From Sedimentisphaerales bacterium (GTDB lineage: Bacteria > Planctomycetota > Phycisphaerae > Sedimentisphaerales > Anaerobacaceae): a stretch of DNA of 64,000 nt. The DNA is taken from the NCBI GenBank assembly GCA_963708075.1, contig OY970194.1, forward strand, positions 5,984,001-6,048,000, in the 5' to 3' direction. Positions 23,301-32,079 of this stretch are shown one piece after another; positions within the stretch are counted from its first letter, which is position 1; the number at the start of each line of letters is the position of its first letter. A model generated the notes under the pieces. The model was not told the DNA's origin. It was given only the letters and a program-made list of their open reading frames with translations, and searched no databases. A program made the translations under genes and the position numbers.

Positions 23301-23588
23301 CTATATCCCGGGCTCTTTGTTCTCGCCGCCGCTGCCGTTGTCTTCGAGCAGCTTTCTGAGGTACGTGTTCTCCCGGCGCGTCGCCTCCAGGTCGAACGCC
23401 TGGTACTTGATGCAGACCCGCAGGTAATCCAACAGCTCCTGCAGGGTGCTTATGCTCTTTTGGAGCTGTTTGCGACTGGCGTCGGCCTGTTTGGCCAGAT
23501 CGGCCAGCTTCTGGTGGCTCGGATCGGTGGTTTCGCCGAAATGCCTGAGCAAGTCATTCAGTGCGCCTTCCAGACTGGCCTCGTCCAT
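23301..23588 (-). CDS. small conserved-looking coiled-coil protein
   Basis: RBS GGAGAG; LDYLRVCIKY..FDLEATRREN.YLR.LLE motif. Confidence 0.7.
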   Translation of the reverse strand: MDEASLEGALNDLLRHFGETTDPSHQKLADLAKQADASRKQLQKSISTLQELLDYLRVCIKYQAFDLEATRRENTYLRKLLEDNGSGGENKEPGI

Positions 23589-23814
23589 CGCACTCTCCTC
23601 CGGAAAACTTCTAAAAAACCAGTGGATAAACCCCCAAACTACATAGTGCCTATTGTACCAGACGCCGGACTGTTGGAGAAGGCCATTCTATGCTCTTTTC
23701 CCATCTTAACGCATATAATGGCCCGAAAGGAGCGTTGAGAGGGACGGCTGTGTCGAGAGTAGGGCTTGTAACCAATCTGCCGGAACACACCGCCCTAACG
23801 ACCATAACGTCCGC

Positions 23815-24140
23815 CAATTGGCTTTGTTCCGCACGGGCCGGCAAGCCACCTGGGCCGAGTTGATCACTTCAAACATCAAACTTCACACCTCGAACTCCCC
23901 CCAATTGGCTTTGTTTCGCACAATGATCGACTGCCTGCCGCCTGTCGCCTGGCAATTGGCTTTGTTTGGCGCAACGGGTTCTTCCCGTAGGGGCGGGTTT
24001 CAAACCCGCCCGCAAACTTGGCACGTTTTGTGGCGAGGCCGTCCTGGCCTTGTCTGCTACAATTGGCTTTGTTTCACGGAATCCTGATGCCCGCTGCCTG
24101 CTCCCTGATGCCTCCTCTTACAGATTGGCTTTGTTTCTGC
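23815..24140. repeat. array of five ATTGGCTTTGTT direct repeats with irregular spacers
   Basis: Core starts at 23817, 23904, 23955, 24062, 24124 (periods 87, 51, 107, 62). Confidence 0.85.
23987..24011 (+). repeat. GTAG-type REP
   Basis: GTAG-G-GGCGGGTTT-C-AAACCCGCC-C hairpin. Confidence 0.75.
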
Positions 24141-24228
24141 ACGTGGCTGATCTGGGCTTGTTCCGGGTTCTCGTGCCTTCTCGGGACGCCTGATCCAGTT
24201 GCGATGTGATTCTGAGCGTTGCGTAGTT

Positions 24229-24257
24229 ATCATACAAACGCCGCACTTTGATGTCAA
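24229..24257 (-). promoter_or_regulatory. sigma70-type promoter pointing into the repeat array
   Basis: TTGACA-N17-TATGAT on minus strand. Confidence 0.7.
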
Positions 24258-24351
24258 TGGAAAATCCCGGCAAGACACAGATTCCCGCCGATTGTAAGGC
24301 CTTATTGGACACGGATTTACGCCGATGGACACGGATTTTTGAGAGATTCTG

Positions 24352-24425
24352 TCTCGCGCAAGACGCCAAGATCGCAAAGGTTAACAGCAGTGTCTTCTTG
24401 GCGTTCTCTGCGTCTTAGCGCGAGA
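24352..24425. repeat. imperfect inverted-repeat element built from ~9-nt units
   Basis: TCTCGCGCAAGACGCCAAGATCGCAAAG ... CTTGGCGTTCTCTGCGTCTTAGCGCGAGA. Confidence 0.6.
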
Positions 24426-24651
24426 TACAAGTCTTTTAGTCCCCACAACTTACACCGGACCGTCGAATGTCCTCTCACTTGAGAACTGATAACCGGCAAC
24501 CGACAACTGACTACCGACAACCATTTCCGATTTGCCCTGTTGCCTCCGTCGCGACATAATAGAGCCTGCTGGACCGAGCGTGACGGCTTTGGAGGCCGAG
24601 AGACCATTTGGACAATGCATCCGCCGGGACCGTTGAGAAGGGAGAAGGCAC

Positions 24652-27600
24652 ATGGCCAAAGGCAGGCAATCCAAAGGTAAACCTGACCGACGAAGCGAAA
24701 AAGCGACCGGCGAACTGCCGGCAGGCGTCAAGTTGCTCCGGACACTGGAAGGGCACAAGGACACCGTCCTTAGCGCATCGTTCAGCCCGGATGGGCGGTG
24801 GCTGGCCAGCGCAAGCGACGATGCTACGCTGCGTCTGTGGGAGGTCTCCAGTGGCAGGGAACTGCGACAATTCAGTGGGCACAAGGACAGTGTCAATAGC
24901 GTGTCATTCAGCCCGGACGGACGGTGGCTGGTCAGCGCAAGCGACGACACGACATTGCGTCTGTGGGAGGCCTCCAGCGGCAAGGAACTCCGACAGTTCA
25001 GCGGATACGAGAATAGCGTGTTGAGCGCATCGTTCAGCCCGGATGGGCGGTGGCTGGCCGGCGCCAGCTACGACGGGATGGTGTGTCTGTGGGAGACTTC
25101 CAGCGGCAAGCGACTGCGACAGTTCGGCGGGCAGAAAGACATTGTCTGGAGCGTGTCGTTCAGCCCGGACGGGCGATGGCTGGCCGGCGCCAGCTACGAC
25201 GGGATGGTGTGTCTGTGGGAGGCCTCCAGCGGCAAGGAACTGCGACAGTTCAGCGCGCACCAGGGCTCCGTCTTTGGCGTGTCGTTCAGCCCGGACGGGC
25301 GGTGGCTAGCCGGCGCGAGCGCGGACAAGACGGTGCGTCTGTGGGAGGCCTCCAGCGGCAAGCTGCTCCGCACCCTCGAAGGACACACAGGACCTGTTTC
25401 AGCGGTTGCTTTCTCCAAGGACTTCGGGATGCTCGCTTCCAAGAGCTCTGACGGGACCGTACGGCTTTGGAATTGCGAGTCGTGGGAATGCGTCGCGGTC
25501 ATTCCGACACCGGATCAGCGGTGGGGCTTTTTTGCGGCTTTGTGCTTTCACCCAACCTTGCTGTGGCTTGCCACGGACGCCTCGAAGCCGGGGGCCATTG
25601 GAGAAAGCGGCCGTCTCATTCGGTTCTGGGAGTTGGATGTCGAGGTTCTGCTCGGGAAAGGGCCCGGGGCCAGACCGCCATCGGAGGCGGTCCATCACAC
25701 CACCAGCAAGATCGTCCTGGTGGGTGATCACAGTGTGGGCAAGTCCGCACTTGGCTATCGGATGCTTCATGGCGAGTTCAAGGAGCAAGCTTCGACACAC
25801 GGGCAGCAGTTCTGGGTGTTTCCTGCCTTAGGCAAGCGACGCGCTGACGGCACCGAATGTGAAGCGGTTCTCTGGGACTTCGCTGGCCAACCCGATTACA
25901 GACTGGTTCACGCGCTGTGCATTGATGATGCCGACTTGGCCTTGGTATTGTTCGATGCCTCGGACATTCGCGACCCGCTACATGGAGTGAGCTTCTGGCT
26001 GAAGCAGCTTCAAGGGGGGCGCACCCGGTGTCCTGTTATCCTCGTAGGCGCGCAAACGGATCGCGGGAGTTGCGCGCTGATGCCGGAGGAACTGCACTCC
26101 TTTTGTCAGCAGCACGGTATCGCAGGGCCGACCCACACGAGCTCGCTCACGGGTGCCGGCGTGCCAGAACTCGTTGAACAGATGAAAGCCCTGATCCCGT
26201 GGGACGACAAGCCCGCCACCGTCACAACTACGACTTTCAAGCGCATCAAGGACTACGTGCTCGGCCTCAAGGAGTCGAAATCGCACGACCAGACCATCTT
26301 CACACCCGTGGAACTCCGTGCCCGTTTGGAGGCCACCGATGTCGGCTGGCATTTCACCGACAATGAAATGCTGACTGCCGTAGGGCACCTTGAGAACTAC
26401 GGCTATGTCAGACGCTTGCGGACCTCGAAGGGGGAGCTGCGTATCCTGCTCCAGCCGGAACGGCTCAACAATCTGGCATCATCGTTCGTTCTAGAAGCAC
26501 GCCGGAACACACTGGGTGCGTTGGAGGAGAGACGTTTGCTGGCTGGCGGCTACGCCTTTCCGGAGTTGACGGACTTGAGCGAGGCCGAGCGTGACTTGCT
26601 TCTGGATTCGGCGGCCTTGCTTTTCCTGGAGCACAATGTTGCATTTCGCGAGACGGACCCCCTACGCATGGAGCCGTACTTGGTCTTCCCGGAACTGATC
26701 AACTTGAAGAAGCCGTCTGGGGACGAAAGGGCAACCGAAGAGGGGGTGGCCTACACGGTGCGTGGGCCGACGGAGAACGTGTTTGCCTCGCTGGTCGTCC
26801 TGCTGGGCCACACGCATACTCTCACGCGCACGGGCCAATGGCAGAACAATGCGCGTTACGAGGTGGGCGAAGGCTTAGTCTGCGGGTTCCGCCAAGAGGC
26901 CGAGCGCGACGGTGAATTAGACTTCGTGGTCTGCTTCGGTCCCAAGGTGGGTGGACCGATCCGGACTCTATTCCAAGGGCTATTCGAGAGCTTCCTCGCC
27001 CGGCGCAACCTGACGGTGATCCGTTACGAACCGGTGCGTTGTACTGAGGCGGAGTGTGGACACTTGCTGGACCGATCCGTCGTGCGCCAGCGGATGAAGG
27101 AGGGTAAGACCTTTGCCTTCTGCAACGATTGCGGCGAGAAATTGACATTGCCAGAGATGGCGGAGCCAATTCAGTTGACGCGCGAAATCGAAGCCGAGGT
27201 TGAGACTCAGCGTCGCACTGCCGAGCAGCGGACACGATTCGAACAGGCCATCTTCAGTGTGCAAAACTATGTGGTAGAGCAGGGAATCAAGGTGCCCGAG
27301 TGCTTCATCAGCTATGCCTGGGGCGTGCCGGAGCACGAACGGTGGGTGGAAAAGCGGCTGGCGACCGATCTACAAAAAGCGGGGATTGCGGTCGTGCTGG
27401 ATCGATGGCACAACGCGAAGATTGGCGCAAGCGTAGCGAGGTTTATCGAACGCATCGAAAAATGTGACCGGATTGTCACGGTTGGCACGCCGCTCTATCG
27501 TCACAAGTACGAGAACAAGGACACAAGCACCGGCTATGTCGCGGCGGCGGAGGTGGATTTGATCAACAACCGGCTTCTTGGCACCGAGCTACAGAAGGCA

Positions 27601-27804
27601 AGCGTGCTCCCGCTGTTGCTGGACGGAGAGAAGACCGCTTCCCTACCGCCGCTCCTGCATGGTCGCGTCTATGCTGACTTCCGCAACGAGGACGACTACT
27701 TCATCACGGCATTCGACTTGATCCTGTGTCTCTACGGGATTGCGCCGAGCGATCCGGCCGTGGCGGACTTGCGGGAGTCGCTCCAAGAGCTGCGGCTGAG
27801 GTAG
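24652..27804 (+). CDS. WD40-Roc-COR-zinc ribbon-TIR/SEFIR (Roco family) protein
   Basis: Six clear WD40 repeats, GDHSVGKS P-loop, WDFAGQ switch II, COR-like region, C....C and CxxC pair, C-terminal CFISYAW...WV..LA.DL...G..V.LD.W. Confidence 0.85.
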   Translation: MAKGRQSKGKPDRRSEKATGELPAGVKLLRTLEGHKDTVLSASFSPDGRWLASASDDATLRLWEVSSGRELRQFSGHKDSVNSVSFSPDGRWLVSASDDTTLRLWEASSGKELRQFSGYENSVLSASFSPDGRWLAGASYDGMVCLWETSSGKRLRQFGGQKDIVWSVSFSPDGRWLAGASYDGMVCLWEASSGKELRQFSAHQGSVFGVSFSPDGRWLAGASADKTVRLWEASSGKLLRTLEGHTGPVSAVAFSKDFGMLASKSSDGTVRLWNCESWECVAVIPTPDQRWGFFAALCFHPTLLWLATDASKPGAIGESGRLIRFWELDVEVLLGKGPGARPPSEAVHHTTSKIVLVGDHSVGKSALGYRMLHGEFKEQASTHGQQFWVFPALGKRRADGTECEAVLWDFAGQPDYRLVHALCIDDADLALVLFDASDIRDPLHGVSFWLKQLQGGRTRCPVILVGAQTDRGSCALMPEELHSFCQQHGIAGPTHTSSLTGAGVPELVEQMKALIPWDDKPATVTTTTFKRIKDYVLGLKESKSHDQTIFTPVELRARLEATDVGWHFTDNEMLTAVGHLENYGYVRRLRTSKGELRILLQPERLNNLASSFVLEARRNTLGALEERRLLAGGYAFPELTDLSEAERDLLLDSAALLFLEHNVAFRETDPLRMEPYLVFPELINLKKPSGDERATEEGVAYTVRGPTENVFASLVVLLGHTHTLTRTGQWQNNARYEVGEGLVCGFRQEAERDGELDFVVCFGPKVGGPIRTLFQGLFESFLARRNLTVIRYEPVRCTEAECGHLLDRSVVRQRMKEGKTFAFCNDCGEKLTLPEMAEPIQLTREIEAEVETQRRTAEQRTRFEQAIFSVQNYVVEQGIKVPECFISYAWGVPEHERWVEKRLATDLQKAGIAVVLDRWHNAKIGASVARFIERIEKCDRIVTVGTPLYRHKYENKDTSTGYVAAAEVDLINNRLLGTELQKASVLPLLLDGEKTASLPPLLHGRVYADFRNEDDYFITAFDLILCLYGIAPSDPAVADLRESLQELRLR
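24748..25480 (+). repeat. 126-nt tandem coding repeats (WD40 blades)
   Basis: TTCAGCCCGGA recurs at 24781, 24907, 25033, 25159, 25285; a diverged unit follows at 25411. Confidence 0.9.
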
Positions 27805-28444: not shown

Positions 28445-28665
28445 GTTTCAGCTCACAATCTCACCGCGTGTCAATGCCGCCGGATTCACCGGCCCAATGG
28501 GTCCATAAGATACCGCTTCTCGAGTCACAACGCCAGAGCCACGCGATGCAGGATTTGTCTTGATGCTTCGCACGAAAAGCGTAAAATGAGAGTCAGCAAG
28601 CAAGCCTGATTGACATACGAGTGACGGCGGGAAAAGCGGGAATGACCACTGGCGGAGCGCGTACC

Positions 28666-30849
28666 ATGAGAGCGGGAAGACTGCTGATATTCATCATTTG
28701 GGTCGAGCTGCTGATGTGCGTCGGTTCAGTCCTCGCCGACGGCTTCATGTTCAGGCGACGTGCGGCGAGCCAAGCCGATATCCTCCAGCCGACGCAGAAA
28801 GTCTACATTCGCTGGGATGGCTCCGAGGAGAAGCTGCTGATTCAGACAAAGTATGAAGGTCCAGCCGAAGAAATGGTCTGGATCGTGCCGGTTCCCTCGC
28901 GGCCGGCCGTGGTGGAGGGCGATCCGAACGTCTTCCGACGGCTCAGTATAGAGACGTATTCTGGGGAGATCTTCTACACTGATTTTGCAGGTCTGCGGCT
29001 CTACAGCAGTGCCGGCGGCGCCCCGAGGAGAGAGGATCCTGTGGAGTGGCGTCAACAGATTGGCGCCTATGACGTCGTGCTGTTAAGACCGGCCGGAGAA
29101 GAGACGGTGATCGAGTGGCTCAATGCCAACGACTTCGGCATGCCGGACAGAGCCGTTCCCATCCTCCAGGACTACATCCGTGAGCAATGGTGGATGGTGG
29201 CCGCAAAGATTCATCCCGATGCTTTGACGGACATCACACGCGATGCACTCGCCAAGGGTCTGTTACATCCTCTGGAGATGACGTTCCAGTCCCCTGCGTG
29301 TCTCTATCCGCTCCGCTTGACGAGTATGGCGGCCGGGCCGGTGGAGGAACTGATCTACATCGAAAGTACGGAACACTGCGAGCCGGCGACATACGCAGAT
29401 GGCAAATGGACGATCGATGTTTTTGGCGGCCCCGTCCGGCAGATACCCGACAGTGATGGTCTGTCCGACATGGAGCGAACCGCCGCGATCATCGAGGGCC
29501 GGACGGAGACTATCTTCACGAGGTGTCTCACAAAGCTCAGAAGGGTCTTCCAGCCCGAGGAGATGACAGAGGACATCGTGTTCAGAAAGATGAACTATGC
29601 GGCGCTGCTTGCCAGCGAAGCTCCCTCGCAGATCGGTCAGGGGGCAACCCAGTACGGCCGCCGTCGTGACCCGAACGGCATATCGCCTCTGTTGGGCGTG
29701 CTCACACCGGCAGCTCTGGATCTGGTGAAGCCCGGGCCGAAGGAATTGCAGCCGTTCCCGAACCCTTCAGCCAATTTCCTTTTCTTTGGGGAGTTGGACA
29801 ACCAGAAACGCAAGTGTGCCCACCTGCGAAGTTGCATCTGGGCCCTGGGGGAAATCGGTATCGATCACAACACTGCCCCGGGCGTGGAGGCGACGCTCCT
29901 GCGGTGTGCAGAGCATGAGAATCAGCTCATCCGAATGGAGGCATATATTGCCTTGATCAAGTCGGGTCTTCCAGGCGTGGGAGTGGTGCTGCTTGACCGA
30001 TTTGAGCGAATCGTCAGCGGTGACCTGACGTACCTTGTGTCTTCCCTCTGGCTGGATGCACCGATTGGTCTGGCCGAGGTGGACATTGTGGCGGATTGGG
30101 TGAATCGGGATGGAAGCGCCGCCGACAAGGAAGCATTTCGCACAATTCTCTCACAGACGATTGCCCGCCTACCCGCTGATCCCATGACTGCCGTGGGACG
30201 CGATGAGTGGGGCAACGCGATTCTTCTGGAGTGGCCCGGATGGATGGTGCATCAGGCCATCATGGCGCCGGAGGCACGCATGGTCGGCGCACTACGGAGT
30301 CTCCGCGAGAAGTTCTCCGAGGCCAATTCAGTGGCTCTCTTCCTGCTGAAGGCAGAGGTGTTGTGCGGATCCGCCGAGGCCGTCTCGGCGGCCGCTCGCT
30401 GGATAGCTGACGCCCAAAACCGAGTCCTGCCGGAACTGGAGGGGCCCGTCAAAGGCGGCTATGCACGCCTCACATATACAGGTGAACAGGGCAAGAGCCT
30501 CCGTGACCGGGTGCTTAAGGTCGGCACGAATGATTACCGCTATTCCGGAGTACCCTCTACGGTCAGCGGCACGATCCTCCGAACGGCTCTTTCGAATTAC
30601 CAGCTTGATGATTGGTACGCCCTGTACCTGTTGGCGCAGATCGAGTCCCCCCAGGCCTCCGACAGACAGATGATCCGGACCCTCTGGGACACCAAGGACG
30701 AAGGCAAGCGATTGGTCGCCGTCGATATCCTGTGGCTATGGAAAGATGCCGAGATGATGATCGAGTTTTACGACGGATGCAATCAAAGCAGGGTCAGGTT
30801 CGAAATCGACCGTCTCGTAGCCGATCTCGAAGGGAAACCTCACAGGTAG
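28666..30849 (+). CDS. secreted DUF2330-domain protein with C-terminal helical (HEAT-like) region
   Basis: Signal peptide; WIVPVPS.P, GAYDV.LL, WL.ANDF, LHPL...F, YPLRLTS motifs. Confidence 0.7.
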   Translation: MRAGRLLIFIIWVELLMCVGSVLADGFMFRRRAASQADILQPTQKVYIRWDGSEEKLLIQTKYEGPAEEMVWIVPVPSRPAVVEGDPNVFRRLSIETYSGEIFYTDFAGLRLYSSAGGAPRREDPVEWRQQIGAYDVVLLRPAGEETVIEWLNANDFGMPDRAVPILQDYIREQWWMVAAKIHPDALTDITRDALAKGLLHPLEMTFQSPACLYPLRLTSMAAGPVEELIYIESTEHCEPATYADGKWTIDVFGGPVRQIPDSDGLSDMERTAAIIEGRTETIFTRCLTKLRRVFQPEEMTEDIVFRKMNYAALLASEAPSQIGQGATQYGRRRDPNGISPLLGVLTPAALDLVKPGPKELQPFPNPSANFLFFGELDNQKRKCAHLRSCIWALGEIGIDHNTAPGVEATLLRCAEHENQLIRMEAYIALIKSGLPGVGVVLLDRFERIVSGDLTYLVSSLWLDAPIGLAEVDIVADWVNRDGSAADKEAFRTILSQTIARLPADPMTAVGRDEWGNAILLEWPGWMVHQAIMAPEARMVGALRSLREKFSEANSVALFLLKAEVLCGSAEAVSAAARWIADAQNRVLPELEGPVKGGYARLTYTGEQGKSLRDRVLKVGTNDYRYSGVPSTVSGTILRTALSNYQLDDWYALYLLAQIESPQASDRQMIRTLWDTKDEGKRLVAVDILWLWKDAEMMIEFYDGCNQSRVRFEIDRLVADLEGKPHR

Positions 30850-31578: not shown

Positions 31579-32079
31579 TCATGCCTGTTTCTCTTCGATC
31601 TTGAGAATTGTGAAGCCGGACTTGAGGTAGTTGTTCAGGGCGTTGGGATGATCGTAGGTGCAAGTGTGGACCCAGACACGGCTTGCCGCCCAGGCGAAGG
31701 CGTTCCCGATGGCGCTGTCGAGCAGCGGGCCGCCGTGGCCCTGGCCGACGAACTCGGGAGTCAGGCCGAAGATCCGAATCTCGGCGCTGCCGCCGTCCTG
31801 GCGCTGGAGTTCGTAGTAGCCTGCGATAGAGCCTTGCCGGTACGCGACAAAGGTCCTGAGATTGTCGCCGGCCGCGTAGTCGTGCCACTGCTCAGCGGTC
31901 CAGACGAGGCGATCCGTCCATCGCCAATCGCCGCCCACGTACTCATAGAGGAAGCGGTTGAATCGCGGCTGCTTGACCACGCACTCGCGAACCTCCAGGT
32001 CGCTCGCCTTGCGGGGCCTTCGGACCCACTGCTCTTTCGATGTTATCTCCAGATGCGTAACTCGCAGCATATCTTCCAA
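31579..32079 (-). CDS. GNAT family N-acetyltransferase
   Basis: LY..VG..W.W.DR, AGYYEL, FGL.PEF.GQG.G, RVWVHTC.YDHP.AL.NY...GF. Confidence 0.88.
   Translation of the reverse strand: MEDMLRVTHLEITSKEQWVRRPRKASDLEVRECVVKQPRFNRFLYEYVGGDWRWTDRLVWTAEQWHDYAAGDNLRTFVAYRQGSIAGYYELQRQDGGSAEIRIFGLTPEFVGQGHGGPLLDSAIGNAFAWAASRVWVHTCTYDHPNALNNYLKSGFTILKIEEKQA

Follow-up and report, generated by a model that had tools for sequence, protein, structure and literature searches.

A 64,000-nucleotide stretch of contig OY970194.1 from a Sedimentisphaerales bacterium, called the window here, carries an array of short direct repeats beside a Roco-TIR gene. The array has its own promoter, and each of its spacers holds a different short-repeat motif. 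What such an array does, and whether as RNA or as DNA, is the question that this locus raises. A sequence-only reading had taken it for something other than CRISPR and had proposed a protein sponge, a small-RNA precursor, a guide set, an RNA partner of the TIR protein or a hotspot of repeats. The explanation that we favour, with about even confidence, is that the array is a non-autonomous selfish DNA element whose repeats are protein-bound exchange points.

Organization of the array

Five exact copies of ATTGGCTTTGTT were found at positions 23817, 23904, 23955, 24062 and 24124 of the window, compared with 0.11 expected from 100 shuffles. Four of the five read CAATTGGCTTTGTT, and the periods (87, 51, 107 and 62) agree with those first read from the sequence. 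The TTGACA-17-TATGAT promoter that had been proposed was also located, at 24257-24229 on the minus strand, with 11 of 12 matches and aimed into the array; the scan gave two promoter-like sites where 0.5 were expected. In the direction of this promoter the repeat is TGCGAAACAAAGCCAATT, and its 12-nt core, AAACRAASCCAA, was named R.

All R boxes lie on the minus strand and the five full ones were assigned from the sequence and the shuffles. The first full box past the leader occupies 24123..24140 and is followed by boxes at 24061..24078, 23954..23971 and 23903..23920, the last of these being the consensus TGCGAAACAAAGCCAATT, for which the genome-wide family was also used. The final copy, at 23816..23833, is a GAACAAAGCCAA variant. 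The leader (24141..24228, minus strand) runs from a predicted start at ~24222 to the first R box, and its sequence includes a degenerate sixth box of family D2 (24153..24165, minus strand). The promoter (24229..24257, minus strand) is of sigma70 type and was placed in the class I leader type (TTGAC-17-TG-TAnnnT) by its match and by leader identity. Two IHF-like sites were assigned by pattern match: one (TAA-N19-TTA, 24295..24319) ends 37 bp upstream of the −35 box, and the other (24428..24452) lies between the array promoter and the Roco gene. The region upstream of the leader (24274-24430) also contains ACACGGATT direct repeats and a CGCCAAG/CTTGGCG inverted pair, and comparable repeat clutter is found ahead of many array leaders. 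A heptamer-like run of GACAACT/GACAACC type lies at 24479-24519, between the array and the Roco gene.

Each of the spacer motifs first described, whether heptamer run or GTAG hairpin, is present at the position given for it. On the minus strand are a GTTTGAA/GTGTGAA run (23865..23892), of a family seen 28 times in the genome and 10 times within arrays, a GGCAGGC-type run (23929..23949), which resembles a unit of another array, and a CCTGATG-type run (24083..24110), without significant match to the units of other arrays. A single GTAG-type REP hairpin lies on the plus strand (23987..24011) and has 68 copies in the genome, eight of them within arrays. The array is overlapped only by TTG-start ORFs of 83-106 aa, and a codon-model gene caller retained none inside it, in keeping with the view that it holds no credible ORF.

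The repeat family in the genome

A genome-wide search gave 231 occurrences of the 12-mer against 0.56 expected, almost all of them in 38 arrays. With one mismatch allowed there were 319 matches in 73 clusters, of which 38 contained three or more copies (280 copies in all); none of these 38 mixes orientations. Thus R forms a family of single-orientation arrays rather than scattered single motifs, and the window array, although real, is an ordinary member of it. Within the 280 copies each position of the R core is 95-100% invariant, in a search that permitted one mismatch, while the spacers have diverged. The unit periods range from 32 to 198 nt. Nine arrays are the tails of genes for a protein that we call STGP, and the other 29, that of the window among them, are gene-less.

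Genes downstream of the arrays are co-oriented with them in 29 of 38 cases, compared with ~60% expected, a weak effect based on crude gene calls. No conserved neighbour gene beyond shadow frames was seen at 160 loci. A replichore bias (16/38) was dropped, and so was the reverse strand of R as a sigma54 promoter, which by inspection has GG-N9-GC rather than N10. Translated in any of the three frames, R arrays give short spurious peptides, which is relevant to the annotation of genomes that carry them. No paper on the R/STGP element family was found in the literature searched (subscription journals and supplements lay outside its scope).

Neighbouring genes

The divergent neighbour, a WD40-Roc-TIR gene (24652..27804, plus strand, by domain search), lies outside the element. 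The suggestion that the array supplies an RNA partner of the TIR protein was not supported. When orthologous loci were anchored on the 95-aa gene on the other side of the array, an array was present at only one of 19 relatives' loci (three of the 19 had <1 kb upstream), and its neighbours there were not Roco-TIR genes; by eye, the next genes match the window ORFs 31579-32079 and 28621-30849. The link is therefore not conserved, and the TIR gene is likely to be a bystander. The segment 24652-28444, with the WD40-Roc-TIR gene and a convergent dCTP-deaminase-like gene, is absent at the same position in the relative G007 and is possibly a variable defence-type insert.

The 95-aa gene, a host gene that flanks the element, occupies 23301..23660 on the minus strand (ORF 23301-23588, −10-like box 23652-23660) and is conserved in 29 of 31 genomes. 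Its product is helical, without a Pfam match above cut-off, and it lies upstream of clpC here. In relatives it is preceded by a conserved motif block (CGCCACAATCGGCACG...CGACAAA).

Descent from the STGP gene

Nine loci of the genome encode a protein of ~180 residues with an N-terminal STGP motif, and R boxes are present in all nine tails; one of these loci is frameshifted with an interrupted tail, and its tail fragment is counted among the nine. The STGP ribosome site and first codons are retained, above the 99th background percentile, in 10 of the 29 gene-less arrays. Six of the retained starts lie at exactly −47 from the first R and three at −92, and this recurrent geometry implies that the same deletions were copied to several places. 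From these sequence relationships, the gene-less arrays descend from the leader and tail of the STGP gene. In the window array the start is lost, its leader having no recognisable STGP start codon (score −12, below background), and it would represent a gene-less member of a multi-copy element centred on this gene.

The association between R and STGP extends to other genomes. Among the best 80 STGP loci from elsewhere, 74 had enough flank; R is downstream in sense at 57 of these, often beyond the stop codon, and upstream in sense at none. Antisense R is downstream in 13 of the 74 tails and upstream at one locus. Of the surveyed loci, 23 lack a Planctomycetota label (they are mainly from Acidobacteriota, with some from Alphaproteobacteria and Binataceae), and sense downstream R was seen at 11 of these. 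R does not accompany STGP everywhere: 17 of the 74 loci have no exact R, and the same is true of three genomes of the phylum with a clear STGP gene. With up to 22 candidates scored in each of 110 genomes of the phylum, STGP was matched in eight, five of them weakly, and the frequency of R was close to its control level. In some loci (L040, L041, L045, L046, L049, L056 and L061) the STGP tail has an inverted R followed 132-279 bp on by a sense R, with repeat cargo enclosed.

The STGP family comprises 25,002 cluster representatives at E<0.001, and the nearest homologues are in records labelled Phycisphaerae, Sedimentisphaerales and other Planctomycetota. Searches of Pfam, PHROGs and PDB sequences gave no match, and NCBIfam gave none for the query and two unrelated single-member matches among 145 aligned proteins; matches in the ESM Atlas were to unnamed clusters only. 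The predicted structure is all-helical (pLDDT 87.6), with a long helical hairpin after the N-terminal module. Fold searches returned no catalytic fold and no specific structure, the best of the generic coiled-coil matches having Z 7.9. No STGP was found in annotated phages, and plasmids gave four partial matches. A full-length but tail-less homologue was observed on a viral contig (L107:1194-1634), between a methylase-like gene and probable virion genes.

Shuffling of units among arrays

The spacers consist of heptamer and REP families that are dispersed through the genome itself, which bears out the idea that the spacer heptamers match dispersed repeats. The 242 units in the genome group into families common to several arrays, with 1778 cross-array matches in sense and 105 in antisense. 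Eight dispersed repeat families keep the motif orientation in 84 of 91 occurrences within arrays and are far commoner outside them. Neither set of counts consists of independent observations, given shared descent.

Orthologous sites provide a direct view of turnover. In three array pairs of the relatives G005 and G013, out of five noticed, the leader and the 3′ junction are kept while most inner units differ, and these inner units are drawn from a shared pool. Among 475 units of three relatives, 259 cross-array pairs have similar middles. In such pairs co-segregation is mostly kept for edge bases within the unit (kappa up to 0.93), is barely present for the two variable positions within R (kappa 0.05-0.23) and is absent for bases past the right R; a match in the next unit was seen in 4 of 181 pairs. 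This loss of co-segregation across R places the exchange breaks within R. Thus, as read from the unit sequences, units are shuffled between arrays, with breaks inside R. Spacer units would be swapped at R among the 38 arrays of this genome, and the heptamers and REPs would be passengers that entered units and spread along with them.

The genome has 13 matches to RAYT-type Y1 transposases and one IS110-family gene. Three of 10 checked Y1 flanks held one spacer repeat family, and no link to the arrays was established. A GCTGCCACCC-type inverted repeat family is very abundant (550 copies) and lies close to three Y1-transposase matches.

Could the arrays simply be places where repeats accumulate? 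In that case R in the gene-less arrays would have no current function, and the arrays would be decaying gene remnants at intergenic hotspots, expanded by slippage and homogenised by ordinary recombination. Such decay would fit spacers made of the genome's common repeats, the tandem unit duplications and insertion-sequence-like interruptions found in some arrays, and the loss from the window array of both the STGP start codon and the module described below. It is nevertheless unlikely, because the R core has stayed near-invariant while the spacers diverged. Furthermore, RecA is poorly suited to exchange between distant loci that share 12-18 bp of identity.

A fixed-geometry module around an IHF-like site

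Many STGP tails and gene-less copies share an ancestral module of two R boxes, the first 23 bp before and the second 30 bp after a 25-bp TAA-N19-TTA site. Of 29 close R pairs at distant STGP loci, 20 have the geometry R-(22-24)-site-(28-31)-R, and three relatives show a spacing of (23-24)/(30-32) in 50 of their 55 site-bearing units. In this genome the site is present in 19 units and in 18 of the 38 arrays; 11 have the module spacing, and most of the remaining site-bearing units have a right arm ~9 bp shorter. The module is absent from the window array and from all nine STGP-tail arrays of the genome. A metagenome scan gave at least 115 module stretches, and among the 58 with at least 900 bp upstream only three have STGP there. 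That the spacing and promoters persist although the other 55 are without STGP upstream weighs further against passive decay of gene-less copies.

The arms of the central site show no covariation in 81 metagenome copies. Its right half fits the IHF-like pattern W-A-W-CAA-N4-TTR in 54 of the 81, a match that is partly built in because TAA and TTA were set by the search pattern. The strict Escherichia coli IHF consensus WATCAANNNNTTR (PMC5224486, in part) fits 28 of the 81 with one mismatch allowed. Fixed spacing without RNA covariation points to a bent DNA-protein complex. The site is spacing-specific across the genome, with 68 occurrences at N15 compared with 1-12 at other spacings, as expected of a host factor, and TAA-N19-TTA is likely to be a binding site of the host IHF-like protein. 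About 140 TAA-N19-TTA sites of strict spacing occur genome-wide, mostly outside arrays. The genome has three HU/IHF-family genes, and the two that were scanned matched IHF-beta models best, below curated cut-offs. No helical periodicity was seen in unit lengths overall.

We infer from these patterns that STGP binds R, that IHF binds at the central site and that the element moves as DNA. R boxes would then be DNA sites, probably bound by the STGP protein with the aid of an IHF-type bending protein.

Probable transcription of the arrays

The window promoter proved to be a shared trait of the family: every array points away from its promoter and the leader classes recur. The window leader has an identity of 0.40 (0.35-0.44) to nine class I leaders, compared with 0.26 ± 0.06 (maximum 0.44) for 319 unrelated sites. 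Leaders of sigma70, ECF and sigma54 type occur, the arrays at G000:C1:211948 and 1388806 having sigma54-type leaders. The −92 STGP-start geometry is common to three arrays whose promoters are of different classes, which suggests that promoters have been swapped. In the metagenomes, a sigma70-type promoter in sense precedes 28 of 61 modules, compared with seven in antisense and four in shuffles. The promoter of the window array would be inherited from the parent element and is probably still firing, so the array itself is probably transcribed. A look-up of sequencing runs listed a single one (share 0.05, probably of DNA), whose one 151-bp contig lies on the clpC side, and none of RNA, an outcome with no bearing on expression.

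The promoter strand is also G-rich. Its G-skew is 0.23 in gene-less arrays (positive in 29/29), whereas STGP tails have 0.08 and 1056 control gaps 0.05 ± 0.09; these values are non-independent, as unit families are common to arrays. Transcribed DNA loses C from its non-template strand, and C-rich RNA is where Rho is loaded. Rho is present in the genome, and either way the skew of the gene-less arrays suggests, and is consistent with, untranslated transcription.

These features raise the alternative that the arrays act as CsrB-like RNAs whose many sites titrate an RNA-binding protein, be it STGP or some other, with different sigma factors driving different copies. The common direction away from promoters of several types, the excess of sense promoters ahead of metagenome modules, the G-skew in a genome with Rho and the A-rich part of R, which is predicted to be unpaired, would all be accounted for. 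A CsrA gene is present in the genome. However, the motif is not displayed on any stem: neither a repeat hairpin nor a supported stem around R was found, five sequence sets showed no excess pairing, and a hairpin presenting R was rejected on this basis. Terminator-like sites follow 10 of the 38 arrays compared with 42 of 200 controls, which is no excess. Titration by RNA would also leave unexplained the fixed 90-bp geometry around a non-pairing site, and it sits poorly with the inverted R in 13 of the 74 STGP tails and with the turnover of array number and position within one genus. We rank it second, after exchange of DNA at R, as a minority possibility.

The leader-repeat-spacer layout, the IHF-like site in the leader and the matches between spacers and dispersed repeats could instead suggest a CRISPR-like array that gives rise to small RNAs against the genome's repeats, or to an RNA partner of the Roco-TIR protein. 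This we consider very improbable. No match to Cas1 (PF01867) was found in a genome that is 92.8% complete, as would be expected if, as first judged, the array is not CRISPR. The periods are far from constant, and the same spacer families recur, keeping one orientation in 84 of 91 cases. With no repeat hairpin, no terminator excess and no Rfam match at the gathering score (best E 2.3), and with a TIR neighbour that is not conserved, neither a guide nor a processed-RNA role is supported.

Turnover and possible mobility in relatives

Close R pairs, a pattern that covers spacings of 21-51 nt only, number 54-199 in four members of the genus and 0-6 in fifteen other genomes, with none in twelve of other families. 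When flanks of relatives' arrays were mapped to this genome (90 loci fetched, from which 27 duplicates of an array already counted were dropped), placement succeeded for 53 downstream flanks, and two of these, at one site, fell near an array, where chance gives 2.6%. Thus copy number and position are patchy and turn over within one genus. A leaderless array in a relative (L225, G013:C30) lies just before a host promoter, with its junction at a CAA inside a degenerate R; the corresponding segment here, G000:C1:3410700-3411060, is without an array.

No transposase or recombinase linked to the element was found at 160 loci. By inspection, and without a close empty site for comparison, neither terminal inverted repeats nor target duplications were seen. 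The absence of a linked recombinase, the window array and STGP-tail arrays without the module, the STGP loci without an exact R, the lack of helical periodicity and the lack of a catalytic fold in STGP count against movement and exchange as DNA. What this explanation does account for is unit shuffling, fixed module geometry, inverted R copies and patchy distribution. A role as RNA accounts for the promoters and the strand skew, and promoter retention and G-skew fit such a role equally well; the two are not exclusive.

A possible link to phage packaging

STGP residues 3-44 align to 19 phage ORFs (hhalign probability 99.3%) that directly precede long ORFs, three of five scanned being matches to terminase large-subunit profiles; a related ORF carries the NCBIfam HGGxSTG domain. 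The homology ends at about residue 44, and the identification of the phage ORFs as small terminases rests on position only, their model being of low confidence (pLDDT 64) with no clear TerS-fold match in fold searches. In small terminases the N-terminal part binds DNA and the centre forms a helical hairpin (PMC9611059, in part), and the lambda protein binds two boxes across an IHF bend (PMC9026076, in part). Only by analogy does this support STGP being a DNA-binding protein.

The genome itself encodes phage-type proteins beyond the window. Portal and capsid genes lie ~51-54 kb past its end, and a stand-alone terminase large subunit (G000:C1:6070072-6071544; L386:2076-3545, minus strand), missed by phrog_2 and PF03237 and located via relatives, lies 22 kb past its end and ~25 kb from the portal-capsid cluster. 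No small subunit was seen beside this terminase here or in three relatives.

STGP could parasitise this host terminase machine. It would be a small-terminase-like adaptor and R modules would be start signals for the host-encoded terminase and capsid; DNA beside the element would be packaged, and cuts at R would feed the shuffling. The shared N-terminal module and long helical hairpin, the resemblance of R-site-R to the R3-I1-R2 part of cosB (PMC9026076, in part), the portal and capsid genes and the terminase without an adjoining small subunit would fit. But the homology reaches only to about STGP residue 44 and is to ORFs identified by position, and cosB R2 is inverted relative to R3 whereas R boxes are direct. 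R-like words are only slightly denser near the phage ORFs (18 in 38 kb compared with 35 in 108 kb), and the exact module is absent from viral contigs. Among the 31 genomes of the order-level set terminase is present in 30, capsid in 26 and STGP in only 20, so STGP cannot be an obligatory small subunit. We therefore hold packaging to be improbable. In its fullest form, which is just as doubtful, STGP elements would be minimal selfish cassettes, a small-terminase-like DNA-binding protein with its own IHF-bent recognition module, supplying the domesticated terminase and capsid of the host, or infecting phages, with sequence-specific start sites, and gene-less arrays would be amplified start-site banks recombining at bound boxes. 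If so, DNA beside an STGP element would be preferentially packaged and transferred, a new route by which selfish DNA could bias gene-transfer particles. Exchange of DNA at protein-bound R boxes remains our preferred explanation.

Comparison with known systems

The new elements in this work are the reshuffling of units at orthologous sites, the R-site-R module, the STGP N-terminus in phage ORFs and the G-skew. Sponge RNAs such as CsrB and RsmY have their own promoter, many short A-rich motif copies and several paralogous loci, and R arrays are alike in all three. The Csr/Rsm motif is GGA in hairpin loops; R, in contrast, has no GGA, no supported stem and no terminator excess, and its arrays are unstable in copy number and position. 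In MITEs and other non-autonomous deletion derivatives, copies with internal deletions retain both ends and are more numerous than the coding parent. Gene-less arrays resemble these as deletion derivatives of a coding parent, the STGP start being kept in 10 of 29, but inspection of the R element showed neither terminal inverted repeats nor a target duplication, and no known transposase was found for it.

Type I-E CRISPR arrays have a promoter leader with an IHF-type site and one-directional repeat-spacer units (PMC5224486, in part), as R arrays do. R arrays differ in having no Cas1 and in their unit length, which varies over 32-198 nt rather than being near-constant, and their spacers are not unique but self-derived, recurring in shared families and shuffled rather than added at one end. 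The heptamer direct repeats of Beggiatoaceae, Cyanobacteria and Bacteroidetes are short oriented intergenic runs like the spacer cargo (PMC4679880, in part), but it is the cargo alone that they match, neither R nor the array. Lambda cosB (R3-I1-R2-R1) and pac sites (PMC9026076 and PMC9611059, in part) resemble the R element in having repeated boxes around a bending-protein site and an adjoining gene whose product has a small-terminase-position N-terminus and then a helical hairpin. Boxes at fixed spacing around an IHF-type site occur in the R family, though not in the window array. The differences are that R boxes are direct, that no cosN or phage context was seen, that there are dozens of chromosomal copies and that the homology spans 42 residues.

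The closest parallel is with the NIMEs, which, in the part of the source drawn on here, are reported only in Neisseria (PMC1797815). There a short constant repeat separates many variable spacer families, syntenic arrays vary in number and content with other repeats inserting, and a specific recombinase acting at the repeat has been proposed (PMC1797815, in part). R arrays likewise have variable spacer families that are dynamic at syntenic sites. However, the NIME repeat dRS3 is a 20-bp inverted repeat, whereas R is an unrelated, asymmetric 12-18-mer and strictly one-directional (PMC1797815, in part, for dRS3), and R arrays have in addition a promoter leader, descent from a protein-gene tail and the fixed R-site-R module. 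For a family of ~25,000 protein clusters without a Pfam, NCBIfam or PHROG model, the R arrays offer a candidate DNA site together with an architecture that experiments can probe. What drives arrays of this kind is a long-standing question, and it becomes testable with one protein, one 12-mer and IHF. Thus the window array works most like a NIME array but is not one, and the family to which it belongs represents NIME-like cassette shuffling outside Neisseria, with the parent gene attached.
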